From NCBI GenBank assembly GCA_037440225.1, contig JBBIUN010000013.1:10936-74935 (forward strand): a stretch of 64,000 nucleotides of DNA, in the 5' to 3' direction. A program made the position numbers and the translations under genes. The notes under the pieces were generated by a model. That model ran no database searches and was not told where the DNA came from. It worked only from the letters and a program-made list of their open reading frames with translations. Shown here one piece after another: positions 111-64,000 of the stretch. This stretch comes from Gemmatimonadota bacterium (GTDB lineage Bacteria; Gemmatimonadota; Gemmatimonadetes; Gemmatimonadales; GWC2-71-9). Position 1 is the stretch's first letter, and each line of letters begins with the position of its first letter.

Positions 111-197
111 CTGGCGGGAAGCAGCCTGACTGGTGCGGTTCGGCTACCACGGCGCCGGCGGCGGGTCCCCCGCGGCCCGGGAGCGCACGGGGACGTC

Positions 198-755
198 CTA
201 CGGCTCCCCGGCAGGCCTCTCGAACCGCGCTTCGAGTTCGACGCCCAATCCCTGGGCCATCCGGTTCACGAAGGCGTAATACCCCGTGATGGCGCAGATG
301 TCGTGGATGGCCCGGTCATCGAATCCCGCCTCCCGGAGGCGCTCCACGTCCGCCGCGGTGACGCTGCTGGGGCGTTCGGTCACCAGGATCGCGTACTCCA
401 GCATGGCCCGGTCGGCGGGGCTCAGGTCCACGCTCCGGAAATCGGCCGCCAGCGCCGCCACGAACTCCCGCGCCGCGCCCGCTGAGCGGCCACTCGACTG
501 CAGCAGCTGACGGAGCCCCGCCCCGTGGTGCGCCACTCAGTAGTGGCAGTGGTTGGCGGCGGACACCACCACCGCGATCATTTCCCGCTGGACCCGCGAG
601 AGCGGGCCTGGCCCCCGCATCAGCTCCCGGTAGAACTCGTAGTGCTGCCGCATGATGCGGGGGTGCACGCCGTGGATGCGCACGATGTTGTCCCGGTCCG
701 GAACCCGATCTTCCGGCGGGATGTCTTGGTCCGGGACGTACCGGATGAACGCCAG
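198..755 (-). CDS. AhpD / carboxymuconolactone-decarboxylase-family peroxidase-related protein with in-frame TGA (537-539) at the second Cys of the CxxC motif (C-H-Y-U): candidate selenoprotein
   Basis: Listed ORF 198..536 is only the C-terminal half. My translation upstream in the same frame gives LAFIRYVPDQDIPPEDRVPDRDNIVRIHGVHPRIMRQHYEFYRELMRGPGPLSRVQREMIAVVVSAANHCHY-TGA-VAHHGAGLRQLL..., the AhpD-core NxCxYCxxHH signature. There is no ATG/GTG/TTG in frame upstream. The best start is CTG 753-755, 5 nt after an AGGAG SD that overlaps the TlpA stop, so the start is uncertain. Confidence 0.7.
510..526 (-). promoter_or_regulatory. Candidate bacterial SECIS hairpin for the AhpD-like UGA
   Basis: The mRNA is ACGGGG-CGGGG-CUCCGU (6 bp including one G-U, G-rich 5-nt loop). 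It begins 10 nt after UGA 537-539. Fold not computed. Confidence 0.45.
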
Positions 756-763
756 GCGCGCTC

Positions 764-1303
764 CTACTGGCCCAGGAGGTCCGCCACGAACATGCGGTTG
801 GCGGGCTCCGACCAGTCGGCCTCGAAGGTTTTCTTGCGGATCACGCCACCGCGGTCGATCACGAAACTCTGCGGGACCCCGATCAACTGATAAGCCTGCT
901 GGATGGCGCCGGTGGGATCGTGCCAGATCTCGAACGTGAGCCCGTACTCCTGAGCGAAGGCGTGGATGTCCGCTTCCGCGCCGGCGTCATCAACGCTCAC
1001 GGCCACCACGGCGAGACCCCGCGGGCCTAGCTCCTGGTACAGCCGCTCGATGCTGGGCATCTCACGCCGGCAGGGATCGCACCACGTGGCCCAGATGTTG
1101 AGCAACACGACCCGGCCCCGGTATTCGCTCAGCCGGACGGTCCGCCCCGGCTCGCCCGGTCCCACCCGGCGAGCCACCACCTCCGGTGCCGGGCCGCCCA
1201 CGTCCACCGCGGCCGGCACCTGAAGCCGCGCCAGGCCCAGCACCGCCCCCACGCCGCCCCCCACGCACAAGGCAGCCACGAGGTACCACCGGGAACGGCT
1301 CAC
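764..1303 (-). CDS. TlpA/ResA-like membrane-anchored thiol:disulfide oxidoreductase
   Basis: 179-aa ORF with an N-terminal TM helix and thioredoxin-fold active site NIWATWCDPCRREMP. GTG start overlaps the upstream TGA stop (GTGA). Confidence 0.9.
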   Translation of the reverse strand: MSRSRWYLVAALCVGGGVGAVLGLARLQVPAAVDVGGPAPEVVARRVGPGEPGRTVRLSEYRGRVVLLNIWATWCDPCRREMPSIERLYQELGPRGLAVVAVSVDDAGAEADIHAFAQEYGLTFEIWHDPTGAIQQAYQLIGVPQSFVIDRGGVIRKKTFEADWSEPANRMFVADLLGQ

Positions 1304-1908
1304 CGGATAGCCTCCAGCGCTTCCAAGATCATGGCGTTCGACGGCCGGATCTTATAGTTCACCTCCGTAAACTTCCAGCGCACCACGCCTTGCCGGTCTA
1401 TCACATAGGTCGTGGGATGGGGAATCCCCCGCGGGTCGTCCGGATTGAGCAGCCCGTAGCGGTTGATCACGCGATGCCCCGGATCCGACAGAAAGACGAA
1501 CTCCGGCCGCCGGCCGTCCTCCTGGGCAATCCGATCCGCCATCTTCTGCAGATCGGCCTTGGGATCCACGGACACCGCGAGGATCTCGGTTTCCCGTTTT
1601 TGGGCCGGGGTCAACAGGTCCCTCAGCTCGCCGAGCTGACGCGCGCAATAGGGTCACCAGTGGCCCCGGTAAAACACCAGCACCACGTTCTTGTGGCCCC
1701 GGTAACTCGATAGGGTCACCACGCTGCGATCCAGCGCTTCCAGCGTGAAATCCGGAGCCACATCACCGACCTTGACGCGGTTCAGATCGCTAGGCGGATC
1801 CGTGGGGCCGTCCTTGGGCCCGAGCGCCGGCACCCCCTGGGACCAAAGCTCACCACTCCCCGCCAGGACCAGCACCAGCGCCACCCTCGTCGCCATCGCC
1901 AGAGACAT
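1300..1908 (-). CDS. Secreted peroxiredoxin (AhpC/TSA-redoxin family) with in-frame TGA (1654-1656) at the peroxidatic Cys position (W-U-P-Y-C): candidate selenoprotein
   Basis: ORF 1300..1614 and the tail of ORF 1654..2559 share one frame and are separated only by TGA. The joined sequence is MSLAMATRVALVLVLAGSGELWSQ...[69 protein letters not shown]... ATG 1906-1908 is preceded by GGAGGGAGG. A signal peptide is present. Confidence 0.75.
1623..1639 (-). promoter_or_regulatory. Candidate bacterial SECIS hairpin for the peroxiredoxin UGA
   Basis: The mRNA is UCAGCUC-GGC-GAGCUGA (perfect 7-bp stem, G-rich apex). It begins 14 nt after UGA 1654-1656. Fold not computed. Confidence 0.45.
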
Positions 1909-1928
1909 GGGGCTACCTCCCTCCGCGC

Positions 1929-2156
1929 CTAGGCCACCACCAGCTCCCGCAGGCGCTCCAGCAGTTCCTTCGGCGGCTTCGGCGCCGCCTCTCGCTGCCG
2001 AGCCAGCGCTTCGAGAAAGGCGAACTCGTAGCGGTACTGCGGGTAGCAGCGCGCACACTCGGCCAGATGGGCGGCGATCTCCTCGGTCCAGACGGGATCC
2101 AATTCGCCGTCCAGGTAGTCCCACAAGCGCTCGATCACTTCCCGGCACGATACCAT
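1929..2156 (-). CDS. Zinc-binding anti-sigma factor (ZAS, RsrA-like)
   Basis: 75 aa with the H-x3-C-x2-C motif (HLAECARC) plus N-terminal Cys4. ATG directly abuts the sigma-factor TAG (TAGATG). Confidence 0.85.
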   Translation of the reverse strand: MVSCREVIERLWDYLDGELDPVWTEEIAAHLAECARCYPQYRYEFAFLEALARQREAAPKPPKELLERLRELVVA

Positions 2157-2738
2157 CTAGCCCACCTCCTCCCGCGACCGCAGCAGGCCAGCGTCCTCGG
2201 CGTAGGCCAAGAGGTCCTGCTGCAACAGCCTCCGGCCCCGGAACAAGCGCGAGCGGACCGTTCCAATGGGAACGCCCAGCACGCGCGCTGCCTCCGCGTA
2301 CGATTGGTCCTCGATGTCCACCAACATCACCGCCGTCCGATACTCCTCCGGCAGCTTGGCCAAGGCGCGCTGAATCGCCTCCGCCAAGTCGCTCCGCTCG
2401 AAGAGCGCCCCTTCCGGATCCGCCCCCAGCACGCTGGCGTGGATGCCTGCCGCCGCCAGGGCTTCCAATGCGGCATCCTCCGTGACGACCTCCCGCTCCG
2501 CGCGGTGCATCCCCTTGAGGAAGGCGTTGCGGCAAATCGTAAAGAGCCAAGCCCGGCAATCGGTCCCCATCTCGAACTGATCCCGGTGGGCCAGCGCCCG
2601 GACGTAGGTCTCCTGGACCAGATCCTCGGCGCGAACCGGGTCCCGCGTGAGCGCCAAGGCAAACCGATAGACCGCATCGGCCGCTGCCAACAGTTGGCTT
2701 TCGAACGTGGGACCCGGGGTCTCAGCCATCGTCTCCAC
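2157..2738 (-). CDS. ECF-type RNA polymerase sigma-70 family factor
   Basis: 193 aa with sigma region 2 (DLVQETYVRAL...) and region 4 (EEYRTAVMLVDIEDQSYAEAARVLGVPIGTVRSRLFRGR). Start is GTG 2738 or ATG 2729. Confidence 0.9.
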   Translation of the reverse strand: METMAETPGPTFESQLLAAADAVYRFALALTRDPVRAEDLVQETYVRALAHRDQFEMGTDCRAWLFTICRNAFLKGMHRAEREVVTEDAALEALAAAGIHASVLGADPEGALFERSDLAEAIQRALAKLPEEYRTAVMLVDIEDQSYAEAARVLGVPIGTVRSRLFRGRRLLQQDLLAYAEDAGLLRSREEVG

Positions 2739-2798
2739 CGACTACCAGGAAAATCGCTCCCTCCCTCCGAAGTTCCCGCGGATACGCGGCGTGTCGCC

Positions 2799-4151
2799 TC
2801 AGAGCAGGTACGGCACGTCCGATCCGGTCGTGGGGTAGGCATACAGCTGGTGCTTGAGATCCGAGGCCAGCACTCGGGATCGGATGGCCAGCGCGAAGAG
2901 GTTGATGACCTCTTCAGCGTGCGGCCCGAGCAGGTGCGCCCCCAGAATCCGGTCCTCCCCCTCCGCCAGGACCACCTTGGCCATGGCACAGGTCTCTGCC
3001 ACCCGCCGTGCCGAGTACCAGCCGGAGGTGTCTTGCTGCTTCACGCGAAGGGGAATCCCCTGGGCCCGGGCCTCGGCCTCGGAGAGCCCCACCGCCGCCA
3101 GCGGCGGGATGGTAAAGGCCACGCTCGGCACCCCGCGATAGTCCGGTGTGTGGTTGTTGCCCTCGAGGAGATTGGAGGCCACGATAGTGCCCTGATAGCC
3201 GGCCACCGGGGTGAGCGGCGCGGCCCCGGGCGAAGCCGCCACGTCGCCTGCCGCGTACACCCTCGGGTTGGTGGTGCTTTGCAGGAACGCGTTGACGCGG
3301 ACCCCGCCGCCGGGCTCCACCGCGACCTCCGCAGCGGCCAGGTCGAGGTGTTGGGTGTTGGGCACTCGCCCGCCACCATGAACCACCGCATCGGCCTCGA
3401 TCGCCGCCTTCCCATCCAGCCCGGCGAGTTCGACCCTGAAGCCGCTCCCTCGCCGCTCCACCGCCGTCACGGCCATCCCCAGCGCAAGCTCGACGCCCAA
3501 ACCCCGGGTGTGCTCCACCAGCCGCGCCACCAAGTCCGCATCGAAGCGCTTCAGCGGCTGGCCGCGGCCGATCACGATCGCCTGGGCACCGGCCCGCTGA
3601 GCCACGTGAGCAAACTCGAAGGAGATGTATCCGGCGCCCAGGAACGCCACCCGAGCGGGCAGTTGGTCCAACTCGAGGAACTGCGTGCTGGTCAGCAGGT
3701 GCTCCTCGCCCGGAATACCGAGACGCCGCGGTCTCGCTCCGGCAGCGATCACGAAATGGCGCGCGGTGAGCGTCTGGCCGTCCACCGCCAGCTGATCCGG
3801 CGCCACGAAGCGAGCCGGCCCGCGGTAGCACTCGATCCCGGCCCGCCGGAAGGCCGCGACGCGGTTCTCGGGCACGGGGTCGGTGAAGGTACGCTTGAAC
3901 CGCATCAGCTCCGCCCACGAGATCCGGGTCTCACCGGTGATGCCGCGGCCCTTCAGGCGGCGTGCCCAGTCGGCAACTTCCGCGGCCCCCACCAGCACCT
4001 TCTTGGGATCGCAGCCCCGCAAGGCGCAGGTGCCCCCGAACGGCAATTCGTCTACCACGGCCACCCGCCAGCCGGCCCGCCGGCAGCGGTATGCCGGCGC
4101 CGACCCCCCTGAGCCGGTGCCGATCACGACCAGATCGAAGCTCGCCGTCAC
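2799..4151 (-). CDS. Pyridine nucleotide-disulfide oxidoreductase (glutathione-reductase / dihydrolipoamide-dehydrogenase superfamily flavoprotein)
   Basis: FAD fold DLVVIGTGSGG and redox-active GGTCALRGCDPKK. A second dinucleotide fold is VAFLGAGYISFEFA. GTG 4149-4151 is preceded by AAGGAGA. The longer listed ORF start (4274) lacks support. Confidence 0.9.
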   Translation of the reverse strand: MTASFDLVVIGTGSGGSAPAYRCRRAGWRVAVVDELPFGGTCALRGCDPKKVLVGAAEVADWARRLKGRGITGETRISWAELMRFKRTFTDPVPENRVAAFRRAGIECYRGPARFVAPDQLAVDGQTLTARHFVIAAGARPRRLGIPGEEHLLTSTQFLELDQLPARVAFLGAGYISFEFAHVAQRAGAQAIVIGRGQPLKRFDADLVARLVEHTRGLGVELALGMAVTAVERRGSGFRVELAGLDGKAAIEADAVVHGGGRVPNTQHLDLAAAEVAVEPGGGVRVNAFLQSTTNPRVYAAGDVAASPGAAPLTPVAGYQGTIVASNLLEGNNHTPDYRGVPSVAFTIPPLAAVGLSEAEARAQGIPLRVKQQDTSGWYSARRVAETCAMAKVVLAEGEDRILGAHLLGPHAEEVINLFALAIRSRVLASDLKHQLYAYPTTGSDVPYLL

Positions 4152-4194: not shown

Positions 4195-4533
4195 TCAGCC
4201 GCCCTGCCGCAGCACATGGGCCAAGGCGCCCTTGAGGCTGGCCAGGGCTTTGACCCCCTGCCCCTTGGCCACACTCTCGGCGACGCACGTATCCATGTGC
4301 CCCTGCAACAATTCCACGGCCACGCCGTTGATCGCCTGCTTGACGGCGCCGATCTGGATCAGGATGTCGTCGCAGGAATGGTGCTCGGCGATCAAGCGCT
4401 GAATCCCGCGAATCTGCCCTTCGATGCGCCGCAGGCGATTTTGGATCCGGCGTTCCACCGCCGGCTTCAAGTACACGCTGGGCAAGCAAGTGCGGGCCAT
4501 ACTCTCTGCCGTCGCGTCTGGGGACGCGCCCAT
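4195..4533 (-). CDS. csoR: CsoR/RcnR-family metal- or persulfide-sensing transcriptional repressor (C-H-C type)
   Basis: Carries RRIEGQIRGIQRLI...HHSCDDILIQIGAV...LQGHMDTC (Cys, then His-x3-Cys). An alternative start is ATG 4500 (MARTCLP...). Confidence 0.85.
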   Translation of the reverse strand: MGASPDATAESMARTCLPSVYLKPAVERRIQNRLRRIEGQIRGIQRLIAEHHSCDDILIQIGAVKQAINGVAVELLQGHMDTCVAESVAKGQGVKALASLKGALAHVLRQGG

Positions 4534-4534
4534 T

Positions 4535-4550
4535 ATACCCGGCCAGGTAT
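4535..4550 (-). promoter_or_regulatory. Candidate CsoR operator (near-palindrome ATACC-N6-GGTAT)
   Basis: ATACCCGGCCAGGTAT lies immediately upstream of the csoR ORF. It resembles the GC-rich TACCC...GGGTA type of CsoR/RicR operators. Confidence 0.4.
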
Positions 4551-4569
4551 GGCCTGCGAAAGAGCCGGG

Positions 4570-6444
4570 TCAGCGGGCGGACCCAGCGGGCTCGGCAGCG
4601 TGGTCGAACTGCCGGATGGCGTCCACGAGTTCGGTCAATTCGAACGGCTTGCTCAATTGGCGGGCACCGGTCCGTTCGAGAAACTCCCGGACCTCGTGGC
4701 TCAAGACGTCGCCCGTCACAAAGAGGAACCGGCTGGCCAGCTCCGGCCGCCGGCGGACCGCTGCGTCGTATAGCTCGAGGCCACTTCGCCCTCCGAGGTG
4801 TACGTCACACACCACCAAGTCAAACCGCTCGGATGCCAGCCGGGCCAGCGCCGCCTCCGCCTCCCCAACACCGGCAACCCGCCACCCCCGGGCCTCGAGC
4901 AACCGGCTCACCGACTGCCGCAGGGCCGGTTCATCCTCCACCACCAACAGCCGCATAGCGCCACCGGTCCCGTTCCGCTCCGGCCGGGGCCGGGCCGCTG
5001 CCGGCGGTGCCGCGGGAGCCGGCTCGGAAGCTGCCGCCGGCAGCCTCAGCGTAAAGGTGGCCCCGCGACCGAGTTCAGACTCGGCCGAGAGTTCGCCGCC
5101 GTGATCCCGGGCGATGCGGCGGGCGATCGCCAGCCCCAAGCCAGTGCCTACCCCCACCGGCTTGGTGGTAAAGAACGACTCGAAGAGCTGCGGCAGATGC
5201 TCCGGCTTGATGCCCGGCCCGTCGTCCTTGACCACCACCTCGACTCCCTGCCCCGCCGGACGCGTGAAGACCTCGAGCCTACCCCGCCCCCGGGCCTCGT
5301 GCATCGCCTGCTCCGCGTTGGCCAGCAGGTTGACCAGCACCTGCTCGATCTCACCGGGCACCGCGGAGACCAGCGGCAGGCCTGGCTGCGGGTGGAACGA
5401 CACCTGAATGCCATGGGCCGCAAAACTCGCCGCTCGCGCCCGCAGCGTCCGTTCGACCAGCTCGTTCACCTCCACCGGCTTGCGAGGCTGTTCCCCCCTT
5501 CTCACCAGGTTGAGGAGCTGGCGCGCAATCCCCGCCGCCCGCCGGGCCTCGTGCGCAATGGTTCGCAGGTCGCTCGCAGCCTGCTCGCTCAGTCCCGATG
5601 CCTCCTGCAGGAGCTCGGCATAGGCCACCACCGAGGCCAGGGGATTGTTGAGTTCGTGCGCGATCGAAGCAATGGTGGCACCTAACTCGCTCAAGGTCTC
5701 CGTGCGGCGCCGGGCCTGCTCGTTCCGCACGCGGTCCGACTGATCGCGCACGGTGACCAGGTACGCGATCGGCTGCTCAGCCTCGTCGCGGACCGGCGAG
5801 ACGGCCAGTTCGGCCGCGAACGGCCGGCCGTTGATGGTGCGAGCCACGACGGGTACGGCTTGCTGGCGGTCGGCGGCGGAGGCTGCCACGGGCTCCCCCT
5901 CGCCGCTCAGGGCCAAGAGCCGGCGGAAGGGCGAACCGGCCAGTTCCCCTGGCTGCGTACCAAAGAGCCGGCGGGCGGCACCGTTGGCGTACTGAATGAC
6001 CTCGTCCGCATCCAGCAGCAACATCGCCTCCGGGAAGGTGCTCAGCGCAGCGGTCACCACTTGCGCCTGGTCTCGCCGCCGGGCCTGCTCCTGGCGCACC
6101 GCCAGCGCGAACCCTCCAACCAGGGAGTCGGTCAACCCGACGGCCGTGCTCAGGGCCAACACGGTCGCTTCGTCCGCGCCTATCCCATACCCCGCGCCGA
6201 AGAGTCGCTCCCCTCCGGCCACGCAGATCACGCTGGCCAGCGTGGCCAGCACTGCTCCTCGCAACCCGAACGTGTAGGCCAGCATGGCCACGGGCAGAAT
6301 GTGGGCGAACCACAGCAAGTGCGACGGTACGCCCACCACCGGCCGCAACAGCGGGTGCAGGGCGGGGAGCGCCGCGATCAGCGCCGCCGATCCCAGAACG
6401 AACAGCCGACGGTTGGAAGCCGGCAGGGAAGTCCATTCGGGCAC
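4570..6444 (-). CDS. Hybrid sensor histidine kinase (membrane N-terminus, PAS, HisKA/HATPase, C-terminal receiver)
   Basis: H-box IAHELNNPLASV, G-boxes DDGPGI and GTGLGLAI, and receiver MRLLVVEDEP...DLVVCDVHL. GTG 6442-6444 is preceded by GAGGAGGAAACAGC. The listed ATG 6660 adds an Arg-rich, low-GC3 extension. Confidence 0.85.
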   Translation of the reverse strand: MPEWTSLPASNRRLFVLGSAALIAALPALHPLLRPVVGVPSHLLWFAHILPVAMLAYTFGLRGAVLATLASVICVAGGERLFGAGYGIGADEATVLALSTAVGLTDSLVGGFALAVRQEQARRRDQAQVVTAALSTFPEAMLLLDADEVIQYANGAARRLFGTQPGELAGSPFRRLLALSGEGEPVAASAADRQQAVPVVARTINGRPFAAELAVSPVRDEAEQPIAYLVTVRDQSDRVRNEQARRRTETLSELGATIASIAHELNNPLASVVAYAELLQEASGLSEQAASDLRTIAHEARRAAGIARQLLNLVRRGEQPRKPVEVNELVERTLRARAASFAAHGIQVSFHPQPGLPLVSAVPGEIEQVLVNLLANAEQAMHEARGRGRLEVFTRPAGQGVEVVVKDDGPGIKPEHLPQLFESFFTTKPVGVGTGLGLAIARRIARDHGGELSAESELGRGATFTLRLPAAASEPAPAAPPAAARPRPERNGTGGAMRLLVVEDEPALRQSVSRLLEARGWRVAGVGEAEAALARLASERFDLVVCDVHLGGRSGLELYDAAVRRRPELASRFLFVTGDVLSHEVREFLERTGARQLSKPFELTELVDAIRQFDHAAEPAGSAR

Positions 6445-6533
6445 GCTGTTTCCTCCTCGACGCTGAGCGCGATGGGCGACGCCGGCGGCCTGAACCCGGC
6501 CCCCAGGCTCAACCGCCCGGCACTGACTACCCA

Positions 6534-6563
6534 GGGAACCCGAACCCATCCCCAAGGGTTCCC
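6534..6563. repeat. Inverted repeat GGGAACCC-N14-GGGTTCCC
   Basis: Read directly. It shares the GGAACC/GGTTCC core with the two units downstream. Confidence 0.6.
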
Positions 6564-6604
6564 GCTCCCGCCTAGCGATGAGCAGGCGAGGCGTCCGAGC
6601 CGCC

Positions 6605-6706
6605 TGTGGACAGGTTCCCGCCCGGGAACCAATCCGAAGCGCGCTATCGAGGCGTACCAACCGAGAGGAGGCGTGTGGAGAGGTTCCTGCCCGGGAACCA
6701 ATCCGA
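6605..6706. repeat. Two ~33-nt direct repeat units (6605-6637 and 6674-6706), each containing a GGTTCC(C/T)-GCCC-GGGAACC hairpin
   Basis: TGTGGACAGGTTCCCGCCCGGGAACCAATCCGA versus TGTGGAGAGGTTCCTGCCCGGGAACCAATCCGA (2 mismatches). They lie in the 317-nt divergent intergenic region. Confidence 0.75.
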
Positions 6707-6761
6707 GAGCCCCGGGATTGGTTGGCAGAGACAGGAACCCCTTTCTACCACAGAGGATACG

Positions 6762-7187
6762 GTGAATAGCAGAAGAATCATACTCGCGGGACTTGCCGGG
6801 ACCTTCGTGATGACCCTGCTCATGTTGATGGCGCCTCTCATGGGTATGCCGAAAATGCCCATCGGGGACATGCTGGGGCAGTTCCTGCACATCGGCCCGG
6901 TGGCCGGGTGGGTCATGCATTTCGTGATCGGCATCGTGCTGGCCGCCATCTACGCGGCGCTCTTTGCCGCTCGCCTGCCTGGGTCCGCTCCGGTGCGAGG
7001 CGCCCTGTACGGCGCCGGCGTCTTCGTGGTGGCCCAGGTCGCGGTCACGCCCATGATGGGAGGCGGCGTGTTTTCGGGCGGCAACATGCCGGTCATCGCC
7101 GGCAGCCTCATCGGGCATCTCGTCTATGGCGGCATCGTGGGCGGGCTGTACGGTCGCCCCGAAGAGCGCCGGCCGGCGTTAGCCTAG
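6762..7187 (+). CDS. Small integral membrane protein (about 4 TM helices), family not recognised
   Basis: GTG 6762 follows AGAGGATACG. Sequence runs VNSRRIILAGLAGTFVMTLLML...GWVMHFVIGIVLAAIYAALF...VFVVAQVAVTPMMGGG...AGSLIGHLVYGGIVGGLYG. The 5' part of listed ORF 6606.. is the repeat region and is not considered coding. Confidence 0.7.
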   Translation: MNSRRIILAGLAGTFVMTLLMLMAPLMGMPKMPIGDMLGQFLHIGPVAGWVMHFVIGIVLAAIYAALFAARLPGSAPVRGALYGAGVFVVAQVAVTPMMGGGVFSGGNMPVIAGSLIGHLVYGGIVGGLYGRPEERRPALA

Positions 7188-7263: not shown

Positions 7264-7659
7264 ATGTTGAAGCGCATTCTTTCCATCGCCGGCACCGGGG
7301 CGTTGATGGCCCTGGCGATGCCGGTCACCGCGCGGGCGCAGCAGATGGCCATGGGCAAGGAGCCCAAGGGCGTCGAAAAGACGATCACGGGCACCGTGAT
7401 TGACGTCTCCTGCAAGTTTCGGCACGGTCTCTCCGGCGCGGATCATGCCATGTGTGCCCAGGTGTGCGCCGACAAGGGCATCCCGCTCGCCATTCTCGGT
7501 ACCGACGGCAAACTCTACGTCCCGGTCAGTGCCGGCATGCCTGGTGAGGGCTCCAACGCCCAGTTGAAGCCGCACGCGGAACACAAGGTGACCGTCAAGG
7601 GCACGGTGTTCGAGGCCGGCGGCGCGAACGCCATTCAGATCGCCAGCATCAGCATGTAG
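7264..7659 (+). CDS. Small secreted protein with three Cys, unknown function
   Basis: ATG 7264 follows CCAAGGAGGAAGC. Signal peptide is MLKRILSIAGTGALMALAMPVTARAQQ. The mature part carries C-x11-C-x3-C (VSCKFRHGLSGADHAMCAQVC). Confidence 0.75.
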   Translation: MLKRILSIAGTGALMALAMPVTARAQQMAMGKEPKGVEKTITGTVIDVSCKFRHGLSGADHAMCAQVCADKGIPLAILGTDGKLYVPVSAGMPGEGSNAQLKPHAEHKVTVKGTVFEAGGANAIQIASISM

Positions 7660-7737: not shown

Positions 7738-9360
7738 ATGCTCCCTCAACCTGGTACCGTCACCAACCGGCAACGCGGCCTTCGGCCCGTGGTTCGGGCC
7801 GTGCTGCTCCTGGGAGGGGCCGGTGTCGCCTGGGCGCTGTTCGGTCCCAGCGCCGGGCCACCCCGCCGAGGGCCGATCGCCATCCGGGTCGCCCGCAGCA
7901 AGCCCGTCACCGAGTTCCAATCCGGTGGAGTGCGGCACGTATTGGCGCCCGGAGCGCCGGAAGAGTTGGTACTGGACACAGTCTTCCCCACGCGGCCGGT
8001 CCGGCTCTTGTGGTTCCAAGGCCGCGCCGCTGCCCCCTTGCCGGATGGCGGCTCGGCGGTGCTGGACGGGGCAGGTGGCGTTATCCTGTTCACCCCCCGG
8101 CTGGGGCAGAGCCGGCCGCCGCTCGACGAAGGGCGGGACGTCGTGAGCGTCGCGGCCACCAGGCACGACCTGTGGTTCAGTGACGCCGATGGCATGCTCC
8201 TCCGATGGGACGGAGGAGGTCGGATGGCGCCCGCGCCACCTTCAGCCATTCGGTACCCGGCCGTGGCGGCCGACCCGCGGCGCGACGACCTCTGGCTGGT
8301 GCGCCGGCCAGGGTACTGGGAGTACCGGTTGCCCGACGCCGGGGCCCGGCTCTTGGCTCGCCTGCACGGAGCAGGCGCCCCGCTCGGAGGCGTGGGAGCC
8401 ATGATCGTCCCGCAGGAGATGCTGCTTTTCGAGTTCGCCAACGCGGGCCATATTGCCGTCGCCGGAGACACGGTGTACTTCGCCCCGTTCCTGCGCGATC
8501 AGATCATCGCCTACTCGGCCGCGGGGGACACCCTGTGGGTCACCAGGAGGGAGCTGGCTCAGGACACTCCCCAGCCGCGCTTCGTGCTCGCCGGCCGCAC
8601 GGCGCAGCTGGACTATCACCCGGTCAACCTGGGCATCGTCGTGGGACCGGACGATCGGCTCTACGTACTGAGTACCCCCGGGTTCACTACGACGGAGGCC
8701 CGCCTCGATGTCCTGGATCGGTTCAGCGGGCACCCGCTCCGATCGGTCCACCTGACCGACGCCTTGCCGACGCTTGCGGCCGATCAAACGGGCCGGGTCT
8801 ACGAGCTGAACCCGTTCCGGTTGCTCACCGGTACCGATCCCGCACACCGGCTGCCGTTTGCCGCATTCGACCTCGAGCAGCGTTCCGGCGGCCGCATGAC
8901 ACTCGACTCGTTGAACGGGTCGGTCACGCTCATCAACTTCTGGGCCAGTTGGTGCGGTCCCTGCCGCAGCGAAATGCCCGCCCTCGACAGCTTGCGCCGA
9001 GAGGTGTCTCATCCGGACTTTCGCTTCGTCACCATGAATGAAGATGTGAGCCGCGAAGCCGCCGAGGCCTTCCTGCGAGAGTTCGGCTTCGATTTCCCCG
9101 TCTTGTGGGGCGGCGGGCGCCTGCGGGCCACGTATCACTATACCGGGCTTCCCTTCACCGTCTTGCTCGATCGCCGGGGACGCGTGGTCCAGCGCTGGCT
9201 GGGCTTTGCCGGACCCCGGCAAATCCAGGCCGTGCGGGCCCTGATCCGTGCCGAACTGGAGCGCCTCCCATCGGCCGCGGACCCATCACCTCACGCCGGA
9301 CATCAGGCGGCGTCCCCGGGCCCGTCGTCGCCCGCCGAACCGCACCGCCACCAGCACTAG
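7738..9360 (+). CDS. Membrane-anchored protein with a large N-terminal (propeller-like?) domain fused to a C-terminal TlpA-type thioredoxin domain
   Basis: TM helix VVRAVLLLGGAGVAWALFG. The C-terminus carries LINFWASWCGPCRSEMPALDSL...GLPFTVLLDRRGRVV. Confidence 0.85.
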   Translation: MLPQPGTVTNRQRGLRPVVRAVLLLGGAGVAWALFGPSAGPPRRGPIAIRVARSKPVTEFQSGGVRHVLAPGAPEELVLDTVFPTRPVRLLWFQGRAAAPLPDGGSAVLDGAGGVILFTPRLGQSRPPLDEGRDVVSVAATRHDLWFSDADGMLLRWDGGGRMAPAPPSAIRYPAVAADPRRDDLWLVRRPGYWEYRLPDAGARLLARLHGAGAPLGGVGAMIVPQEMLLFEFANAGHIAVAGDTVYFAPFLRDQIIAYSAAGDTLWVTRRELAQDTPQPRFVLAGRTAQLDYHPVNLGIVVGPDDRLYVLSTPGFTTTEARLDVLDRFSGHPLRSVHLTDALPTLAADQTGRVYELNPFRLLTGTDPAHRLPFAAFDLEQRSGGRMTLDSLNGSVTLINFWASWCGPCRSEMPALDSLRREVSHPDFRFVTMNEDVSREAAEAFLREFGFDFPVLWGGGRLRATYHYTGLPFTVLLDRRGRVVQRWLGFAGPRQIQAVRALIRAELERLPSAADPSPHAGHQAASPGPSSPAEPHRHQH

Positions 9361-28568: not shown

Positions 28569-28886
28569 ATGGTTCGGCTGAGCACCGCCGAGCGCCGCCG
28601 CCTGACCCGGGTGGCCCGCGCCCTGGGGGACGAAACCCGCCTCCGGATCCTAGAACGGCTTTCGGCCGGCGAGCGCTGCGTGTGCGAACTCACCGGCGCC
28701 TTGGCAGCCGGCCAGTCGCGGCTCTCCTTCCACCTCAGGGTGCTGGGGGAGGCCGGCTTGGTCACCGCGCGCCGCGAAGGCCGTTGGATGTATTACGCCC
28801 TGAATTCTCAGCCGCTGGCCGCCCATGCGGCGCTGGTGGAACGCCTGGCGGCGCCGGCGCCCGCAACCCTGCCGGTGCTGGCGTAG
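28569..28886 (+). CDS. arsR: ArsR/SmtB-family metalloregulator
   Basis: LGDETRLRILERLSAGERCVCELTGALAAGQSRLSFHLRVL, with the CVC metal site in the HTH. Confidence 0.9.
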   Translation: MVRLSTAERRRLTRVARALGDETRLRILERLSAGERCVCELTGALAAGQSRLSFHLRVLGEAGLVTARREGRWMYYALNSQPLAAHAALVERLAAPAPATLPVLA

Positions 28887-28964
28887 GGGCGGAGCCTGAC
28901 GAGCCGAGGAGCGGACTCATCTATCAGCAATTCTTGATGCAATCGCTCTCGCCATGAGGACCTC

Positions 28965-29819
28965 ATGAGCCCCGATGACCTCAGGGAACTGATCCGCCAG
29001 CGGTACGCGGACCAAGCTCGCCGCGCGGCCCGCGGAAACGACGAGCCAGGCAGCACCTCCTCTGGCTGTTGCGCCTCGTCCGGGTGCTGCGGCTCCAGCG
29101 GTTGCAACGACCCGGTCACGGGAGAGCTGTACGCCGCGGATCAAGTCGCCGTGCTGCCGGAGGAAGCGGTGCGAGCCTCGTTGGGTTGCGGCAATCCCAC
29201 GGCACTGGCCGACCTGCGCCCCGGGGACGTGGTGCTCGATCTGGGCTCGGGAGGCGGCGCGGACGTCCTGCTGTCGGCCCGGCGGGTGGGGCCGAGCGGC
29301 AAGGCCTACGGCCTGGACATGACCGACGAGATGCTGGAGCTGGCTCGAGCCAGTGCCCGGAAGGCCGGGATCGAGAACGTGGAGTTCTTGAAGGGGGAGA
29401 TCGAACACATCCCGCTGCCCGACGAGTCGGTGGACGTCGTCATTTCCAACTGCGTGATCAACCTCTCGGCGGACAAGCGGCAGGTCTTGCACGAGGCTTA
29501 CCGAGTGCTGCGGCCTGGCGGCCGCTTCGCCGTCTCGGACGTGGTGGTGCAGGGGCCCTTGCCCGCACCGGTGCGCAGGAGCCTGGAACTGTGGGTAGGA
29601 TGCGTGGCGGGGGCCCTCGAAGTCGCCGAGTTCGAGAAGTTGCTCGCAGCGGCAGGATTCGAGGAGATCTCGATCGATCCGACCCGCATCTACCGTACCG
29701 AGGACGCCCGTAGCTTCCTCGCGAAGGCGGGACTGGCCGTGCTCTCGGGTGTCGAGGGGCGCCTCATGGCCGCCTTCGTGCGGGCCCGCAAGCCGGCCAC
29801 CGTGTCATCTCCCGCCTGA
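28965..29819 (+). CDS. arsM: Arsenite S-adenosylmethionine methyltransferase
   Basis: SAM motif VLDLGSGGG. Conserved Cys residues lie in [15 protein letters not shown] and WVGCVAGA. The N-terminal Cys cluster is [15 protein letters not shown]. Confidence 0.85.
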
Positions 29820-50623: not shown

Positions 50624-51100
50624 ATGTACATCGATCGCTACGAGCGTTTCTGGATGTGGAGCGCAGGCGTCATCTGCGCCGCCTTCTTCGGCGCCATCGT
50701 GATGGGTTTGGTCACCCAGGGCACCCGCCCGCCCAGCCACGTGGAAACCATTGACCCCAAGGGCGTTTGGACCGACGCCCGGTTCGCCGAGCGCGGCGTG
50801 CGCGTGAACTCCGACGGCAGCGTCACGGTGACCGCCGTCGCCATGATGTTCGCCTTCCAGCCCAACGAGATCCGCGTACCCGCCGGACGCCCCGTTACCT
50901 TCCGGCTGGCCAGTCCGGACGTGGTGCACGGGTTCGAGATCGTGGGTAGCAACGCCAACACCATGGTCATCCCCGGTTACGTGAGCCAGTTCACCACCAC
51001 CTTCACCACCCCGGGCGAGTATCTCATCGTCTGCAACGAGTACTGCGGCCTGGGCCATCACTCGATGATGGGCAAGCTCATCGTGGAGGAGGTGCCATGA
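50624..51100 (+). CDS. cbaB: ba3-type cytochrome c oxidase subunit II (CuA cupredoxin)
   Basis: CuA site HGF...CNEYCGLGHHSM. One N-terminal TM helix. Confidence 0.9.
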   Translation: MYIDRYERFWMWSAGVICAAFFGAIVMGLVTQGTRPPSHVETIDPKGVWTDARFAERGVRVNSDGSVTVTAVAMMFAFQPNEIRVPAGRPVTFRLASPDVVHGFEIVGSNANTMVIPGYVSQFTTTFTTPGEYLIVCNEYCGLGHHSMMGKLIVEEVP

Positions 51101-52719
51101 ACACCGAACGCCGCTTGGCCACCGCCAACATCGGGATCGCCGTCGCCGCCTTCGGGGTGGCAGCGGCCATGGCCCTGATGCAGGCGGTCTCCCGCGCCAA
51201 TCTCGACCTGCCCTGGCGGTCTCCCAAGATGTACTACCTCTCGGTGACCGCCCACGGCGTCCTGATGGCGCTGGTGTTCACCACCTTCTTCATCATGGGC
51301 CTGGGGATCGCACTCACTACCCACGGCCTCGGCCGGCCGCTCCGCTGGCCGCGGATCGGCTGGGCCTCGTTCTGGGTGGCCGTGGCCGGGACGCTGGCTG
51401 CGCTCTGGGCGATTTTCTGGGGCAAGGCCACGGTACTCTACACCTTCTACCCCCCACTCCAGGCCCACCCCGCGTTCTACATCGGCTTGACGCTCCTGGT
51501 GGTGGGCTCGTGGGTGTGGAGCGCAGTGATCGTCGCGACCTACCGCGCCTGGCGGGCCGAGCATCGCGAGCAACCCGTCCCGCTGGCGGTCTTCGGGATG
51601 CTCGCCACGATCATCGTCTGGCTGCTGGCCACGATCGGCGTGGCGGCGGAGATGTTGTTCCAGCTCATCCCGTGGTCCTTAGGGCTCACCCGCACCGTAG
51701 ACCCGTTGCTGGCACGCATGCTGTTTTGGTTTTTCGGCCACCCGCTGGTCTATTTCTGGTTGCTGCCGGCCTACGTGATCTGGTACACCGTGCTCCCCAA
51801 GGCCGCGGGCGGCAAGCTCTTCAGCGACCCGCTGGGCCGCATGGTGTTCGCCTTGTTCATCATCCTGTCCACGCCGGTAGGGTTCCATCACCAGTTCATG
51901 GACCCTGGCATCGCTTCGGGCTGGAAGCTGTTGCACACCTTCAACACGCTGGGCATCCTGTTTCCCAGCTTCGTGACCGCGTTCACGGTGGTGGCCTCGC
52001 TGGAGATCGCCGGCCGTGCTCGCGGCGCCACCGGCTGGTTCGATTGGCTCGGTAAGCTCCCCTGGGGCGATCCCTTGGTCGCTTCCGTCCTGCTGAGCAT
52101 GCTGTTGTTCGCGGTGGGCGGCTTCGGCGGCGCGATCAACGCCGCCTACGGCATGAACTCCATGGTTCATAACACCGCCTGGGTCCAGGGTCACTTCCAC
52201 CTTACCGTGGGAAGCGCCGTCGCGCTCACCTTCATGGGCACGGCTTACTGGCTGGTGCCCAAGCTGGTGGGCCGGGAGCTGGAACTGGCCCTCCTCGCCA
52301 AGGTGCAGCCCTATCTCTGGTTCGCAGGCATGATGCTCTTTTCGATCGCCAACCACGTGACCGGCTTGATGGGCATGCCCCGGCGCATCTACGACCCGAC
52401 CTACCTCGGCAGCACGGTCGCGGAGCGATGGGGCGGCCTCACCGCGCTCTCCGCGCTGGGGGGCGTCTTTCTCTTCGCCAGCGCCACCTTTTTCCTCTTG
52501 GTGATGCTGGGAACGGTGCTCGCCGGGCGCCCCACCACGGATACCGCCATCAGCTTCGCCGAGCCGCTGGAGGGTGAGCCGGCCAAGCGCCTGGTCTTCG
52601 ACCGGCTGGGACTCTGGATCACGGTGGCTGTCGTGCTGGTCTTGATCGCCTACGCCTATCCCCTAGCCGACCACCTCAGCATGACGACCTACGGCTCCCC
52701 CGGCTTCAAGCCGTTCTGA
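51097..52719 (+). CDS. cbaA: ba3-type (B-family) cytochrome c oxidase subunit I
   Basis: 540 aa and polytopic, with FFGHPLVYFWLLP and HHQF motifs. Overlaps subunit II by ATGA. Confidence 0.9.
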   Translation: MNTERRLATANIGIAVAAFGVAAAMALMQAVSRANLDLPWRSPKMYYLSVTAHGVLMALVFTTFFIMGLGIALTTHGLGRPLRWPRIGWASFWVAVAGTLAALWAIFWGKATVLYTFYPPLQAHPAFYIGLTLLVVGSWVWSAVIVATYRAWRAEHREQPVPLAVFGMLATIIVWLLATIGVAAEMLFQLIPWSLGLTRTVDPLLARMLFWFFGHPLVYFWLLPAYVIWYTVLPKAAGGKLFSDPLGRMVFALFIILSTPVGFHHQFMDPGIASGWKLLHTFNTLGILFPSFVTAFTVVASLEIAGRARGATGWFDWLGKLPWGDPLVASVLLSMLLFAVGGFGGAINAAYGMNSMVHNTAWVQGHFHLTVGSAVALTFMGTAYWLVPKLVGRELELALLAKVQPYLWFAGMMLFSIANHVTGLMGMPRRIYDPTYLGSTVAERWGGLTALSALGGVFLFASATFFLLVMLGTVLAGRPTTDTAISFAEPLEGEPAKRLVFDRLGLWITVAVVLVLIAYAYPLADHLSMTTYGSPGFKPF

Positions 52720-61891: not shown

Positions 61892-62359
61892 ATGAAAGCT
61901 CATATGCGTATGCGGAAATCCGAATTCGGTGCCCTGGCCCTTTGGGTAGGGGTCGCCGCCCTGTCGGCCTGCGGCGGCGAGCGGGAAGCCCGCGAACGTG
62001 AAGGCGAGGTCCCGTCGGCTGCCCGTCCACCGTCCGCGACAGCCGCCGCCCCGGCCCCGGCAGGTCCAGTGGACGAGGCCCTCGCGGAACGAGGCGAGCG
62101 CGTCTTCCAGACCAAGGGTTGTGTGGGCTGCCACACGATCGGCAAGGGGAGGCTGACCGGGCCCGACTTGAAGGGCGTCACCGAACGCCGGCCCTACGAA
62201 TGGTTCGCTCCCTGGGTCATGAATCCCGATTCCATGCTCAAGGTGGATCCGATCGCCAAGCAGCTCCTGGCCGAGTACATGACGCCCATGCTGGGCATGG
62301 GGGTCACGGCCGACGAAGCGCGGGCACTCTGGGAGTACCTGCGGCACGAATCACACTAA
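61892..62359 (+). CDS. Lipoprotein-type monohaem c-type cytochrome immediately upstream of nosZ
   Basis: MKAHMRMRKSEFGALALWVGVAALSACGG (lipobox). Haem site KGCVGCHTIG and distal Met region YMTPMLGMG. Start may be 61892, 61904 or 61910. Confidence 0.85.
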   Translation: MKAHMRMRKSEFGALALWVGVAALSACGGEREAREREGEVPSAARPPSATAAAPAPAGPVDEALAERGERVFQTKGCVGCHTIGKGRLTGPDLKGVTERRPYEWFAPWVMNPDSMLKVDPIAKQLLAEYMTPMLGMGVTADEARALWEYLRHESH

Positions 62360-62376
62360 GCATCACGGAGTCAGTC

Positions 62377-64000
62377 ATGCTCACTCGACGACGCGTACGT
62401 TGGCTGTCGCTGGCGGCCTTGGGTGCCGTGTTCGCGGCAGCCGGGCTCGAGTCCTGTGGCGGGCGAGGCGGAGCCGACATCGGCAGCATCGCCCGCGAGC
62501 GCGGCCTCACCGACGCGGATGTCGTGGCGGCGGTCAAGACCTACCAGCCCACCGGCAAGATGGACGAGTATCTCATGTTCGCCTCGGGCGGGCATTCGGG
62601 GCAGGTCTTGGTGATCGGGATCCCCTCCATGCGCCTGCTCAAGGTCATTGCCGCGTTCACGCCGGAGCCCTGGCAGGGCTATGCCACCGGCGCCGACGAG
62701 CACAAGGCCCTGATGCGCAGCGCGCGCATGGCCAACCACGATATCACGTGGGGCGACACCCACCACCCGGCGCTGTCGGAAACGGACGCCGACTACGATG
62801 GGCAGTTCCTGTTCATCAACGACAAGGCCAACCCCCGCATCGCGGTGATCGATCTGCGGGACTTCGAAACCAAGCAGATCGTCACCAACCCCAACATCGG
62901 CACGGATCATGGAGGCGCCTTTGTCACGCCCAACACCGAGTACGTGATCGAGCCGTCCCAGTACTCGGTACCGCTGTGGAAGGAGTACGCCGGGCTGGAC
63001 AGTTACCAGCAGGACTACCGTGGCCTAGTGACGTTCTGGAAGTTCGACCGCCAGCGGGGGCGCATCGCCGAGGACCAGTCGTTCTCCATCGAGCTGCCGC
63101 CCTACTGGCATGACCTTTCCGACGCCGGCAAGGGACCCTCGGCGGGCTGGGCGTTCCTCAACTCCTTCAACACCGAGATGGCCACCGGCGGCATCGAGGA
63201 GGGCAAGCCTCCCTTCGAGGCCGGCGCGTCGCAGAATGACATGGACTATCTCCATATCATCAACTGGCAGAAGGCAGCCCAGGTCGCGGCGCAACCGGGC
63301 AAGGCTCGGGCCCTGCGCGGCATGAAGGTCATTCCCTTGCAGACCGCCATTGACGAGGGGCTGGTGTACTTGGTCCCCGAGCCCAAGAGCCCGCACGGGG
63401 CGGACGTGACGCCCGACGGTGCCCGCATCGTGGTTTCCGGCAAGCTCGACCCCCACGTGACGGTCTATTCGTGGTCCAAGATCAAGGCGGCCATAGACCA
63501 GAAGCAGTTCAGCGGCAAAGACCGCTACGGCATCCCCCTGTTGGACTTCGCCTCCGTGATTGACGGGCAACTGGAACTCGGCCTGGGACCGCTCCACACC
63601 CAGTTCGACAACAACGGGAACGCCTACACCAGCCTCTTCCTCGAGACCAAGGTTGCCAAGTGGCGGCTCGACCCGCTTCAGCTGCTGGAGAAAATTGACG
63701 TGCATTACAACGTGGGGCACATTGCCGCGGCCGAAGGCGATACCAAGTCTCCGGACGGCAAGTACCTGGTCTCCCTCAACAAGTGGTCGCTGGACCGGTT
63801 CAACAACGTGGGTCCGCTGCTCCCCCAGAACTTCCAGCTCATTGACATCTCCGGCGAGCACATGCAGCGGCTCTACGACATGCCCATCGGCATCGGCGAG
63901 CCCCACTACGCCCAGATCATCAAGGCCGACAAGCTCAAGCCCTTTACCGTCTATCCCCAGATCGGCTACGACCCCGGCACCATGGGTCCCGCCCGCGACG
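62377..64000 (+). CDS. nosZ: Nitrous-oxide reductase, clade II (atypical, Sec-type); 5' 541 codons, runs off the window
   Basis: Not in the ORF track because there is no stop. My translation from ATG 62377 (GGAG SD) gives MLTRRRVRWLSLAALGAVFAAAGLESCGG...KMDEYLMFASGGHSGQVLVIGIPSMRLLKVI...WGDTHHPALSETDADYDGQFLFINDKANPRIAVIDL...PKSPHGADVTPDG...GPLHTQFD...HYNVGHIAAAEGDT...GEPHYAQI. This is the NosZ propeller with the CuZ His ligand contexts. Confidence 0.9.
   Translation, partial: MLTRRRVRWLSLAALGAVFAAAGLESCGGRGGADIGSIARERGLTDADVVAAVKTYQPTGKMDEYLMFASGGHSGQVLVIGIPSMRLLKVIAAFTPEPWQGYATGADEHKALMRSARMANHDITWGDTHHPALSETDADYDGQFLFINDKANPRIAVIDLRDFETKQIVTNPNIGTDHGGAFVTPNTEYVIEPSQYSVPLWKEYAGLDSYQQDYRGLVTFWKFDRQRGRIAEDQSFSIELPPYWHDLSDAGKGPSAGWAFLNSFNTEMATGGIEEGKPPFEAGASQNDMDYLHIINWQKAAQVAAQPGKARALRGMKVIPLQTAIDEGLVYLVPEPKSPHGADVTPDGARIVVSGKLDPHVTVYSWSKIKAAIDQKQFSGKDRYGIPLLDFASVIDGQLELGLGPLHTQFDNNGNAYTSLFLETKVAKWRLDPLQLLEKIDVHYNVGHIAAAEGDTKSPDGKYLVSLNKWSLDRFNNVGPLLPQNFQLIDISGEHMQRLYDMPIGIGEPHYAQIIKADKLKPFTVYPQIGYDPGTMGPARD

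Follow-up and report, generated by a model that had tools for sequence, protein, structure and literature searches.

A predicted dual-selenoprotein redox operon coupled to an ECF sigma factor and a zinc anti-sigma factor in Gemmatimonadota

We analyzed a 64,000-nucleotide stretch of a Gemmatimonadota genome (contig JBBIUN010000013.1 of assembly GCA_037440225.1; hereafter the window, with positions counted from its first letter), and in particular five co-directional genes on its minus strand between 198 and 2777. Read in order, they encode an extracytoplasmic function (ECF) sigma factor, a zinc-binding anti-sigma factor (ZAS), a peroxiredoxin-like (Prx-like) protein with an in-frame TGA, a TlpA-type protein, and an AhpD-like protein with a second in-frame TGA. 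We consider it probable that these genes form an autoregulated ECF sigma/ZAS operon of the SigH-RshA/SigR-RsrA type, in which a thiol-redox repair set containing two true selenoproteins would be co-transcribed with its own regulators. The window has a GC content of 68%, and its nearest relatives are Gemmatimonadota metagenome-assembled genomes (MAGs); related loci and protein matches are cited below by our handles (L and P numbers).

In-frame TGA codons and their SECIS hairpins

The sigma gene spans 2729..2157 (190 aa), with an ATG at 2729 that is backed by the starts of its orthologues, the mechanically called open reading frame beginning at a GTG at 2738. It is followed on the same strand by the ZAS gene (2156..1929), the Prx-like gene (1908..1300), the TlpA/ResA-like gene (1303..764), and the AhpD-like gene (755..198). 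The junctions are tight: the sigma and ZAS genes meet at TAGATG, 20 nt separate the ZAS and Prx-like genes, the Prx-like and TlpA genes overlap by the 4 nt GTGA, and 8 nt lie between the TlpA and AhpD-like genes, so that the abutting, same-strand arrangement described in the initial annotation of this DNA agrees with both the coordinates and the sequence at each junction. Pfam and NCBIfam searches confirmed the family of each of the five genes, giving zf-HC2 for the ZAS, AhpC-TSA for the Prx-like protein, AhpC-TSA, Redoxin, and Thioredoxin_8 for TlpA, and CMD and TIGR01926 for the AhpD-like protein. A convergent gene ends near 110, and the operon therefore ends at 198; within the five-gene unit, a simple scan detected no internal promoter or terminator better than chance. 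From the overlaps, the gaps of 20 nt or less, and the lack of internal signals, we infer a single compact operon read as one shared mRNA.

To place the two TGA codons in a comparative frame, we aligned each with its counterparts in relatives. For the Prx-like gene, whose TGA lies at 1656..1654 (minus strand; residue U85), 80 sequences were retrieved from a search covering a single genome for each GTDB species; in one of them the motif was not located. Among the remaining 79 genomic relatives, the aligned codon is TGA in 72 and TGC or TGT in seven, and the carriers include Gemmatimonadota, Rokubacteria, Binatia, Blastocatellia, and deltaproteobacterial MAGs. For the AhpD-like gene, whose TGA lies at 539..537 (minus strand; residue U73, in the context NHCHY-U-VAHHG), a metagenome scan (n = 80) gave TGA at the CxxU position in 77 relatives, to which L010 and L081 to L083 can be added; the others have Cys there or the motif was not located. 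Cysteine-containing homologues align a Cys to both TGAs (111 of 120 protein matches for the Prx-like protein, 19 matches for the AhpD-like protein). The claim that both codons fall on active-site cysteine positions, beyond what chance would produce, is therefore borne out. Cysteine and selenocysteine versions do alternate, and the Cys-form Prx-like genes of L030, L035, L043, and L047 keep the upstream GGGAAC element described below.

The coding signal continues past both codons. Compared with three relatives, dN/dS downstream of the UGA was 0.05–0.11 for the Prx-like gene and 0.19–0.21 for the AhpD-like gene, values that indicate purifying selection. As an ordinary stop, TGA is used in the window more often than any other codon (24 of the 45 called genes), so the two in-frame codons are a case of local recoding and not of a reassigned code. 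When the window was scanned for other in-frame TGAs flanked on either side by coding signal, no additional convincing selenoprotein candidate emerged.

We then compared the regions after the UGA codons with the published model of the bacterial selenocysteine insertion sequence (bSECIS), which calls for a stem of 4–16 bp, a loop of 3–9 nt with a G within its first two positions, a distance of 16–37 nt past the UGA, and a minimum free energy (MFE) of -7.5 kcal/mol or lower (PMC13188914). In the Prx-like gene, the hairpin UCAGCUC-GGC-GAGCUGA (1623..1639, minus strand) has a 7-bp stem, a GGC loop that starts 21 nt past the UGA, and an MFE of -8.6 kcal/mol; in the AhpD-like gene, the hairpin ACGGGGC-GGG-GCUCCGU (510..526, minus strand) has a stem of 6–7 bp, a loop read as GGG or CGGGG that starts 17 nt past the UGA, and an MFE of -9.0 kcal/mol. 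Both agree with the model in all four respects. Across 73 sequences, 95.7% of cells in the Prx-like hairpin were paired, compared to only 29–49% in slid registers, and compensatory changes on both sides were seen at four of the seven pairs, including a closing U-A that becomes G-C in 16 sequences; none of 500 shuffles reached its covariation score. The selenocysteine forms keep 6.7 of the 7 pairs and the seven cysteine forms 4.7. For the AhpD-like hairpin, with the consensus ACGGRGC-GGG-NCUCCGU, 94.4% of cells were paired in 81 sequences, compared to 27–53% in slid controls. Because this hairpin is so strongly conserved, it yielded only two compensatory events, along with a systematic A-U/G-U alternation at one pair, and its support is conservation more than covariation. 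No Rfam family matched at the gathering threshold across the whole window, and a permissive scan of 150..2900 gave only chance-level matches; bacterial SECIS elements are not captured by Rfam.

On this comparative evidence, both in-frame TGAs are selenocysteine codons. The opposite view, that they are true stops in genes that have decayed, been split, or been misassembled, has on its side that both genes are broken at the TGA in public annotation. It is effectively refuted by the recurrence of TGA at the aligned codon in independent relatives from several phyla (72 of 79 for the Prx-like gene, 77 of 80 for the AhpD-like gene), by a frame that is conserved with low dN/dS past it, and by the conserved hairpins.

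Public protein sets hold these selenoproteins in wrong forms (P0005, P0042, P0051, P0121, P0128, P0127, P0137, P0140, and others), either with Trp in place of Sec or as split N- and C-terminal fragments. The Prx-like matches with Trp at the Sec position are all JGI calls, apparently with TGA read as W, and one 99%-identical fragment of 112 aa (P0127, an NCBI record) seems to be the same gene as that of the window. Because public calls either split the genes at the UGA or read it as Trp, the operon is invisible in current annotation.

The sigma/anti-sigma pair and its promoter motif

The sigma factor has Pfam Sigma70_r2 and r4_2 domains, its best solved relative is Mycobacterium tuberculosis SigH (E 1.9e-28), and its best NCBIfam model is TIGR02947 (SigH_actino), with a score of 121 bits that lies far below the cutoff of 251; orthologues in Gemmatimonadota share 73–97% identity with it. 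The anti-sigma factor is a soluble protein of 75 aa (zf-HC2, 44.6 bits). When it was aligned with RsrA (5frf), its C4, H30, C34, and C37 fell on the zinc ligands C11, H37, C41, and C44 with the same spacing, and all four are invariant in nine orthologues, in keeping with the earlier description of an RsrA-type protein with an HxxxCxxC motif. These results suggest that the sigma factor works like ECF12 (SigR/SigH) members, and we place it beside that group and not within it, in view of its TIGR02947 score and of a promoter that departs from the SigH consensus. The anti-sigma factor is likewise best called RsrA-like, a protein that on present evidence would work as RsrA does, with neither membership nor trigger proven; by analogy, thiol oxidation is the trigger we would expect.

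The initial annotation had made a weak call of an ECF-type promoter, GGGAAC-N15-CGAT, upstream of the sigma gene, and comparison with relatives strengthened it. The predicted element, GGGAAC (2777..2772)-N15-CGATT (2756..2752), occupies 2752..2777 on the minus strand, 48 nt upstream of the sigma ATG, and is probably autoregulatory. Of 13 distinct related sigma genes, 12 have GGGAAC at the corresponding upstream position and 10 have the full pattern GGGAAC-N14-18-nG(A/T)TT; in Gemmatimonadota the hexamer lies 39–50 nt before the sigma start codon. It is kept whatever gene lies upstream, be it an FAD (flavin adenine dinucleotide) reductase, csoR, AhpD, or Prx. The Binatia-type sigma genes of L068 and L070 have GGAACT-N17-GTT, which matches the SigH consensus GGAAYR-N17-18-GTT (PMC4803200); read in the same way, the promoter of the window is GGAACT-N16-ATT, similar to that consensus and not identical to it. 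The coupling of the ZAS gene through TAGATG and the conserved promoter upstream of the sigma gene point to an autoregulated ECF sigma operon. Induction of the operon is likewise a prediction, all regulatory claims made here being comparative.

We also analyzed how far the motif and the gene linkage extend. The five-gene order is kept in L081/L082 and in L083, at 83–97% protein identity, which answers the question of synteny raised at the outset. In L083, csoR stands directly before the promoter and sigma gene, a kinase gene is also found upstream, and there is no FAD reductase gene. Elsewhere the parts recur in other combinations: AhpD(U) followed by an FAD reductase, sigma, and ZAS genes, with Prx(U) 5.5 kb away (L085, L164); AhpD(U)-sigma-ZAS (L126); Prx(U)-sigma-ZAS (L068, L070); and, in L074, Prx(U) immediately after an orthologous reductase gene (55% identity). 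In one Gemmatimonadota genome, ergothioneine-type genes, EgtB-like (DinB_2 and FGE-sulfatase) and EgtD-like (Methyltransf_33), adjoin FAD reductase, sigma, and ZAS genes (L166, 6871..9161).

When the regions upstream of Prx-like genes without an adjacent sigma gene were searched, Cys-form genes included, GGGAAC was present in 23 of 74, compared to 6.0 expected, a 4-fold excess; the full motif was present in six of the 74 against 0.29 expected, a 20-fold excess. The motif also precedes DUF6789 and FAD-reductase genes in relatives. These data bear on whether the three redox genes simply happen to lie beside the sigma/ZAS pair, being expressed on their own while the sigma factor controls other targets. 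The cassette Prx(U)-TlpA-AhpD(U) does occur without an adjacent sigma gene in L010 and L084, and most Prx-like and AhpD-like loci have no sigma gene within 5–6 kb. Nevertheless, we find this explanation quite improbable: the 20-nt gap, the 4-nt overlap, and the 8-nt gap leave no room for promoters, the motif stands before Prx-like genes even where the sigma gene is elsewhere, and the linkage recurs in the other gene orders of L068, L070, L085, L126, and L164. Linkage that survives rearrangement, combined with a shared promoter, supports a regulon over chance adjacency.

A search for the promoter before other redox genes had been proposed in the initial annotation, and it yielded a second match. 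The pattern GGGAAC-N14-17-SGWTT has two matches in the window, compared to 0.41 expected; besides the sigma promoter, it matches GGGAACCAATCCGAGAGCCCCGGGATT (6693..6719, plus strand), 4 kb from the operon and 43 nt before a gene for a DUF6789 membrane protein (6762..7187, plus strand; 52 bits). This gene is followed on the plus strand by one for a secreted, Cys-containing protein of 131 aa that matches no Pfam family (p131; 7264..7659), and by one for a 540-aa protein that has a transmembrane anchor, a domain of no known family, and a C-terminal TlpA-like WCGPC domain (7738..9360; Redoxin and Thioredoxin). The same promoter precedes DUF6789 in L083 and L085, and the DUF6789, p131, and TlpA-like genes are accompanied by AhpD(U), sigma, or Prx-like genes in L030, L083 to L085, L126, L131, L138, L147, L152, and L164. 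This operon is probably a second target of the same sigma factor.

Several further observations touch on the motif. An 18-bp palindrome, GGTTCCyGCCCGGGAACC, occurs twice on the plus strand, at 6613..6630 and 6682..6699, the second copy overlapping the -35 element of the second promoter, and that promoter itself holds an inverted repeat, AACCAATCC-N10-GGATTGGTT; in this divergent region between the PAS kinase and DUF6789 genes, the palindromes and the inverted repeat may form an operator for another regulator. In L084, a gene for a small Cys-rich protein (CPHCG...CHGCG...CCVFCSY; 1496..2183) adjoins Prx(U)-TlpA-AhpD(U) and has a full ECF motif upstream (minus strand, 2183). Sigma homologues at 64–70% identity in L167 to L170 were considered and not counted as orthologous synteny, being a paralogous group with a membrane-type ZAS of ~240 aa and another context. 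This paralogous sigma gene adjoins a divergent cluster of radical-SAM/methyltransferase fusion, PHO4, FAD reductase, and VTT genes; near it are found an orphan ZAS of 75 aa (~70% identical to that of the window), a p131 homologue, and a GRDB-like gene, and the full promoter motif occurs five times over 12.6 kb in L167.

The redox proteins and a proposed mechanism

The Prx-like protein matches Pfam AhpC-TSA (PF00578) at 112.7 bits, as well as Redoxin, and its motif is U85-P-Y-C88. When it was aligned with M. tuberculosis AhpE, its closest solved relative, C88 fell on the peroxidatic Cys (C45) at the N-terminus of helix 2, U85 (Cys in the cysteine forms) fell at the catalytic Thr of PxxxTxxC, and the Pro position was R81; the catalytic Arg of AhpE, in 'GIANRGTFVVD', aligned to P165 of an invariant P-H-P motif. 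By sequence, then, this "Prx" is no catalytic peroxiredoxin: of the four residues needed for peroxiredoxin catalysis it lacks three, the Pro, the Thr, and the Arg. The initial annotation had placed it in peroxide defense as a peroxiredoxin, a role that is not established. Its features instead identify it as a member of the known 'Prx-like 1' family (pfam00578, UxxC), which has been filed as a thiol:disulfide oxidoreductase (PMC2398784, Table 2) and which is distinct from the true Prx selenoproteins with TxxU (PMC2398784, PMC13188914). Full-length alignment revealed an N-terminal hydrophobic leader before a conserved LGPxDG in all homologues, and the protein is therefore predicted to be exported. 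TlpA has a WCDPC motif and an N-terminal membrane anchor, scores 104 bits with the ResA subfamily and 87 bits with TlpA in NCBIfam, each below cutoff, and follows the Prx-like gene in L001, L003, L006, L007, L010, L024, L081 to L084, and L130. Both proteins thus appear extracytoplasmic, as had been proposed.

A role in peroxide defense could still hold in function if the Prx-like protein were a true peroxidase, its selenol attacking peroxide as in glutathione peroxidase, C88 resolving, and TlpA reducing, after the manner of ScsB-TlpA-PprX; we regard this as doubtful, while granting it a real minority chance. Selenols react fast with peroxides, and the AhpC-TSA fold and the kinship to AhpE also speak for it. 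So does the adjacency of genes for a secreted Prx-like protein and TlpA in many genomes, which mirrors TlpA-PprX (PMC3322552). Conversely, the three residues missing here are those by which all peroxiredoxins activate their peroxidatic Cys, the Cys homologues have CxxC, which is typical of disulfide oxidoreductases, and the class given in the literature is thiol:disulfide oxidoreductase (PMC2398784, PMC13188914).

The AhpD-like protein scores 130.5 bits with TIGR01926 (cutoff 81.8) and belongs to the CMD Pfam family. Its motif is E58...C70-H-Y-U73...H77, that is, E-x11-CxxC-x3-H with Sec at the second Cys, a pattern that we take to be the AhpD active site; E58 and H77 are invariant in the alignment. 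The nearest solved structures are uncharacterized 'peroxidase-related' CxxC proteins (3c1l, 2pfx, and 6k40). Its apparent start codon is CTG (755..753), with a GGAG Shine-Dalgarno sequence 5 nt upstream, and orthologues start with ATG (L081, L010, and L085), GTG (L083), or TTG (L084); the CTG is either a rare initiation codon or a sequencing or assembly error. We found no leader peptide, in agreement with the earlier remark that no signal is visible, and placed the protein in the cytoplasm. A direct relay of the AhpC/AhpD type between the two selenoproteins was considered and rejected: the Prx-like protein has a signal peptide and the AhpD-like protein does not, and because their compartments differ such a relay is unlikely.

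In the mechanism that we propose, the ZAS would, under reducing conditions, bind Zn through its conserved ligands C4, H30, C34, and C37 and sequester the sigma factor. Thiol oxidants or thiol-reactive electrophiles would oxidize its cysteines, with loss of Zn and release of the sigma factor, as in RsrA. RNA polymerase with this sigma factor would then use the conserved GGGAAC-N15-CGATT element before the sigma gene and produce a single mRNA for sigma, ZAS, Prx-like(U), TlpA, and AhpD-like(U), and the second copy of the motif would drive the DUF6789/p131/TlpA-like operon. Both UGAs are, on the comparative evidence, read as Sec through the SECIS hairpins, whose loops start 21 and 17 nt downstream. 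The exported UxxC Prx-like protein and the anchored TlpA would reduce disulfides and sulfenates in the envelope, and possibly peroxides, with electrons presumably supplied by some membrane reductase, while the CxxU AhpD-like protein, with Sec at the second-Cys place of the AhpD E...CxxC...H motif, would act in the cytoplasm. Freshly made, reduced ZAS would end the response.

A number of results weigh against this account. No selA, selB, selC, selD, or tRNA-Sec was found within the 64-kb window (ARAGORN gave no tRNA; Pfam scans of called genes), and Pfam scans of the called genes in the window likewise gave no DsbD/CcdA-type donor for the envelope branch. Single-sequence folding of the post-UGA regions was no better than that of shuffles (z = 0.30 and 0.39); because the DNA is 68% GC, such folding is uninformative, and the support for the SECIS elements rests on the comparative pairing counts. 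Promoter enrichment was not observed before AhpD-like genes in general, GGGAAC being present in 6 of 65 and the full motif in 1 of 65; a firm regulatory link can accordingly be claimed for Prx-like genes and for the present operon, but not for AhpD-like genes as a family. At -10 the promoter has GATT where SigH/SigR use GTT, and, as a GGAAC -35 element is generic for ECF sigma factors, another ECF sigma could use these promoters. The ZAS scores 50.1 bits with TIGR03988 (antisig_RsrA), under the equivalog cutoff of 62.5. The redox determinants of RsrA are two acidic residues before the first Cys and a hydrophobic then a charged residue after the second (E-E/C41 and C44/L-E; Jung et al. 2011, PMC3177212); in A-E-C34-A-R-C37-Y-P, E33 and Y38 fit this rule and A32 and P39 do not (2 of 4).

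This partial match also counts toward a different sensing mode, in which the ZAS is not a direct sensor of thiol oxidation and responds to thiophilic metals or metalloids (Cu, Hg, As, Se, and Te) or to another cue, the cargo serving envelope metal or metalloid stress. Many ZAS factors are not redox sensors (PMC3177212), a CsoR-family metal/persulfide sensor is encoded directly upstream in the window (about 4500..4198, minus strand; Pfam Trns_repr_metal) and in L083, a mer operon adjoins the sigma-ZAS pair in L164, and the Cys-rich protein gene with an ECF motif stands beside the L084 cassette. Set against this, the ZAS is soluble and short, has no sensor domain besides the anti-sigma domain, and in every orthologue has kept the additional N-terminal Cys that corresponds to C11 of RsrA; the linked cargo genes all encode thiol or selenol redox proteins, and thiol-reactive metals would in any case use the same cysteines. 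We judge this mode unlikely and keep thiol oxidation as the favored trigger.

If the motif is followed across genomes, a wider proposal emerges, which we put forward tentatively, as close to an even call: Gemmatimonadota and some Binatia-like and deltaproteobacterial lineages may possess a SigH/RsrA-like thiol-stress regulon, the conserved output of which would be a selenium-dependent redox-repair set for envelope and cytoplasm (Prx-like UxxC, TlpA-type, AhpD-like CxxU, DUF6789, p131, and glutathione-reductase-like proteins). Were it true, two of the most abundant uncharacterized bacterial selenoprotein families would be stress-induced effectors of one sensor, and their Sec and Cys versions would swap under a constant promoter.

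Next to the operon, upstream of csoR, lies a gene for a hybrid PAS histidine kinase with a receiver domain (6660..4570, minus strand), and between csoR and the operon one for a glutathione-reductase-like FAD disulfide reductase (about 4150..2799, minus strand; Pyr_redox_2 and Pyr_redox_dim). A promoter scan detected a sigma-70-like promoter, TTCGCA-17-TATAAT (4560..4532, minus strand), as the putative own promoter of csoR and the reductase gene. Farther along the window, an ArsR-family regulator gene is followed by one for an S-adenosylmethionine-dependent methyltransferase with an N-terminal Cys-rich stretch, which looks ArsM-like (28569..29819, plus strand), and a respiratory context is provided by cytochrome oxidase subunits II and I and an N2O-reductase-type propeller protein at the window end (50624..52719 and 62119..64000).

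Comparison with known systems

The pairing of the two selenoprotein families is not new in itself. Adjacent genes for Prx-like 1 and AhpD-like 2 selenoproteins were noted in 2008 in Global Ocean Sampling (GOS) reads (PMC2398784) and restated in a 2026 review (PMC13188914), with function unknown. Those reports concern the same families in a single read-level case, without a TlpA gene between the two or a regulator, whereas here the order Prx(U)-TlpA-AhpD(U) is resolved, and both a promoter motif and a sigma/anti-sigma pair are linked to it. The initial annotation had taken the dual-selenoprotein operon as a whole to be undescribed; that stands for the sigma/anti-sigma coupling, which appears unreported, and not for the clustering of the two genes. 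A full-text literature search found no paper linking selenoproteins with ECF sigma/anti-sigma control, and neither selenocysteine nor peroxiredoxin nor Gemmatimonadetes is mentioned in the main text of the paper that reclassified ECF sigma factors (PMC7826278). What appears to be new, then, is the coupling of a selenoprotein cassette with a SigH/RsrA-like sensor outside Actinobacteria, along with a promoter that can be defined and a predicted wider regulon. Such a link would give both families a physiological context: an oxidative or thiol-stress response that can be induced and that has one arm in the envelope and another in the cytoplasm. With the promoter motif, members of the predicted regulon can be sought in genome sequences.

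Among individual proteins, the Prx-like selenoprotein has no essential difference from the Prx-like 1 family, with which it has in common the pfam00578 fold, UxxC, Cys homologues with CxxC, and a SECIS element right after the UGA. The AhpD-like protein is a member of the AhpD-like (CxxU)/TIGR01926 family by score, by its CxxU motif, and by its E...CxxC...H residues. Unlike M. tuberculosis AhpD proper, it has no adjacent AhpC, its Prx-like neighbor is exported, and its gene apparently starts with CTG. At the level of the envelope branch, the closest parallel is ScsB-TlpA-PprX, an envelope peroxide-reduction pathway of Caulobacter crescentus in which PprX is described as a peroxiredoxin (PMC3322552). 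In both systems, a secreted protein of the Prx fold is encoded with a TlpA-type reductant and both act in the envelope, but the protein here is without the Prx Pro, Thr, and Arg, uses Sec, and has no ScsB/DsbD homologue encoded nearby.

SigR/RsrA-type switches are well known in Actinobacteria, and the present system would extend their logic to another phylum. Like SigR-RsrA of Streptomyces and SigH-RshA of Mycobacterium (ECF12), it combines a SigH-like sigma factor with a small soluble ZAS that has the four zinc ligands, a putatively autoregulated promoter with a GGAAC -35 element and a T-rich trimer 16–17 nt downstream, and thiol-redox cargo. It differs in its host, which is a member of the Gemmatimonadota and not of the Actinobacteria, in that both proteins score below the equivalog cutoffs, and in that the ZAS has half of the redox-determinant residues. 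The cargo differs as well: in the SigR/SigH systems it consists of trxBA or mycothiol genes elsewhere in the genome, whereas here it consists of selenoproteins and envelope oxidoreductases that appear to be co-transcribed with the sigma factor itself.

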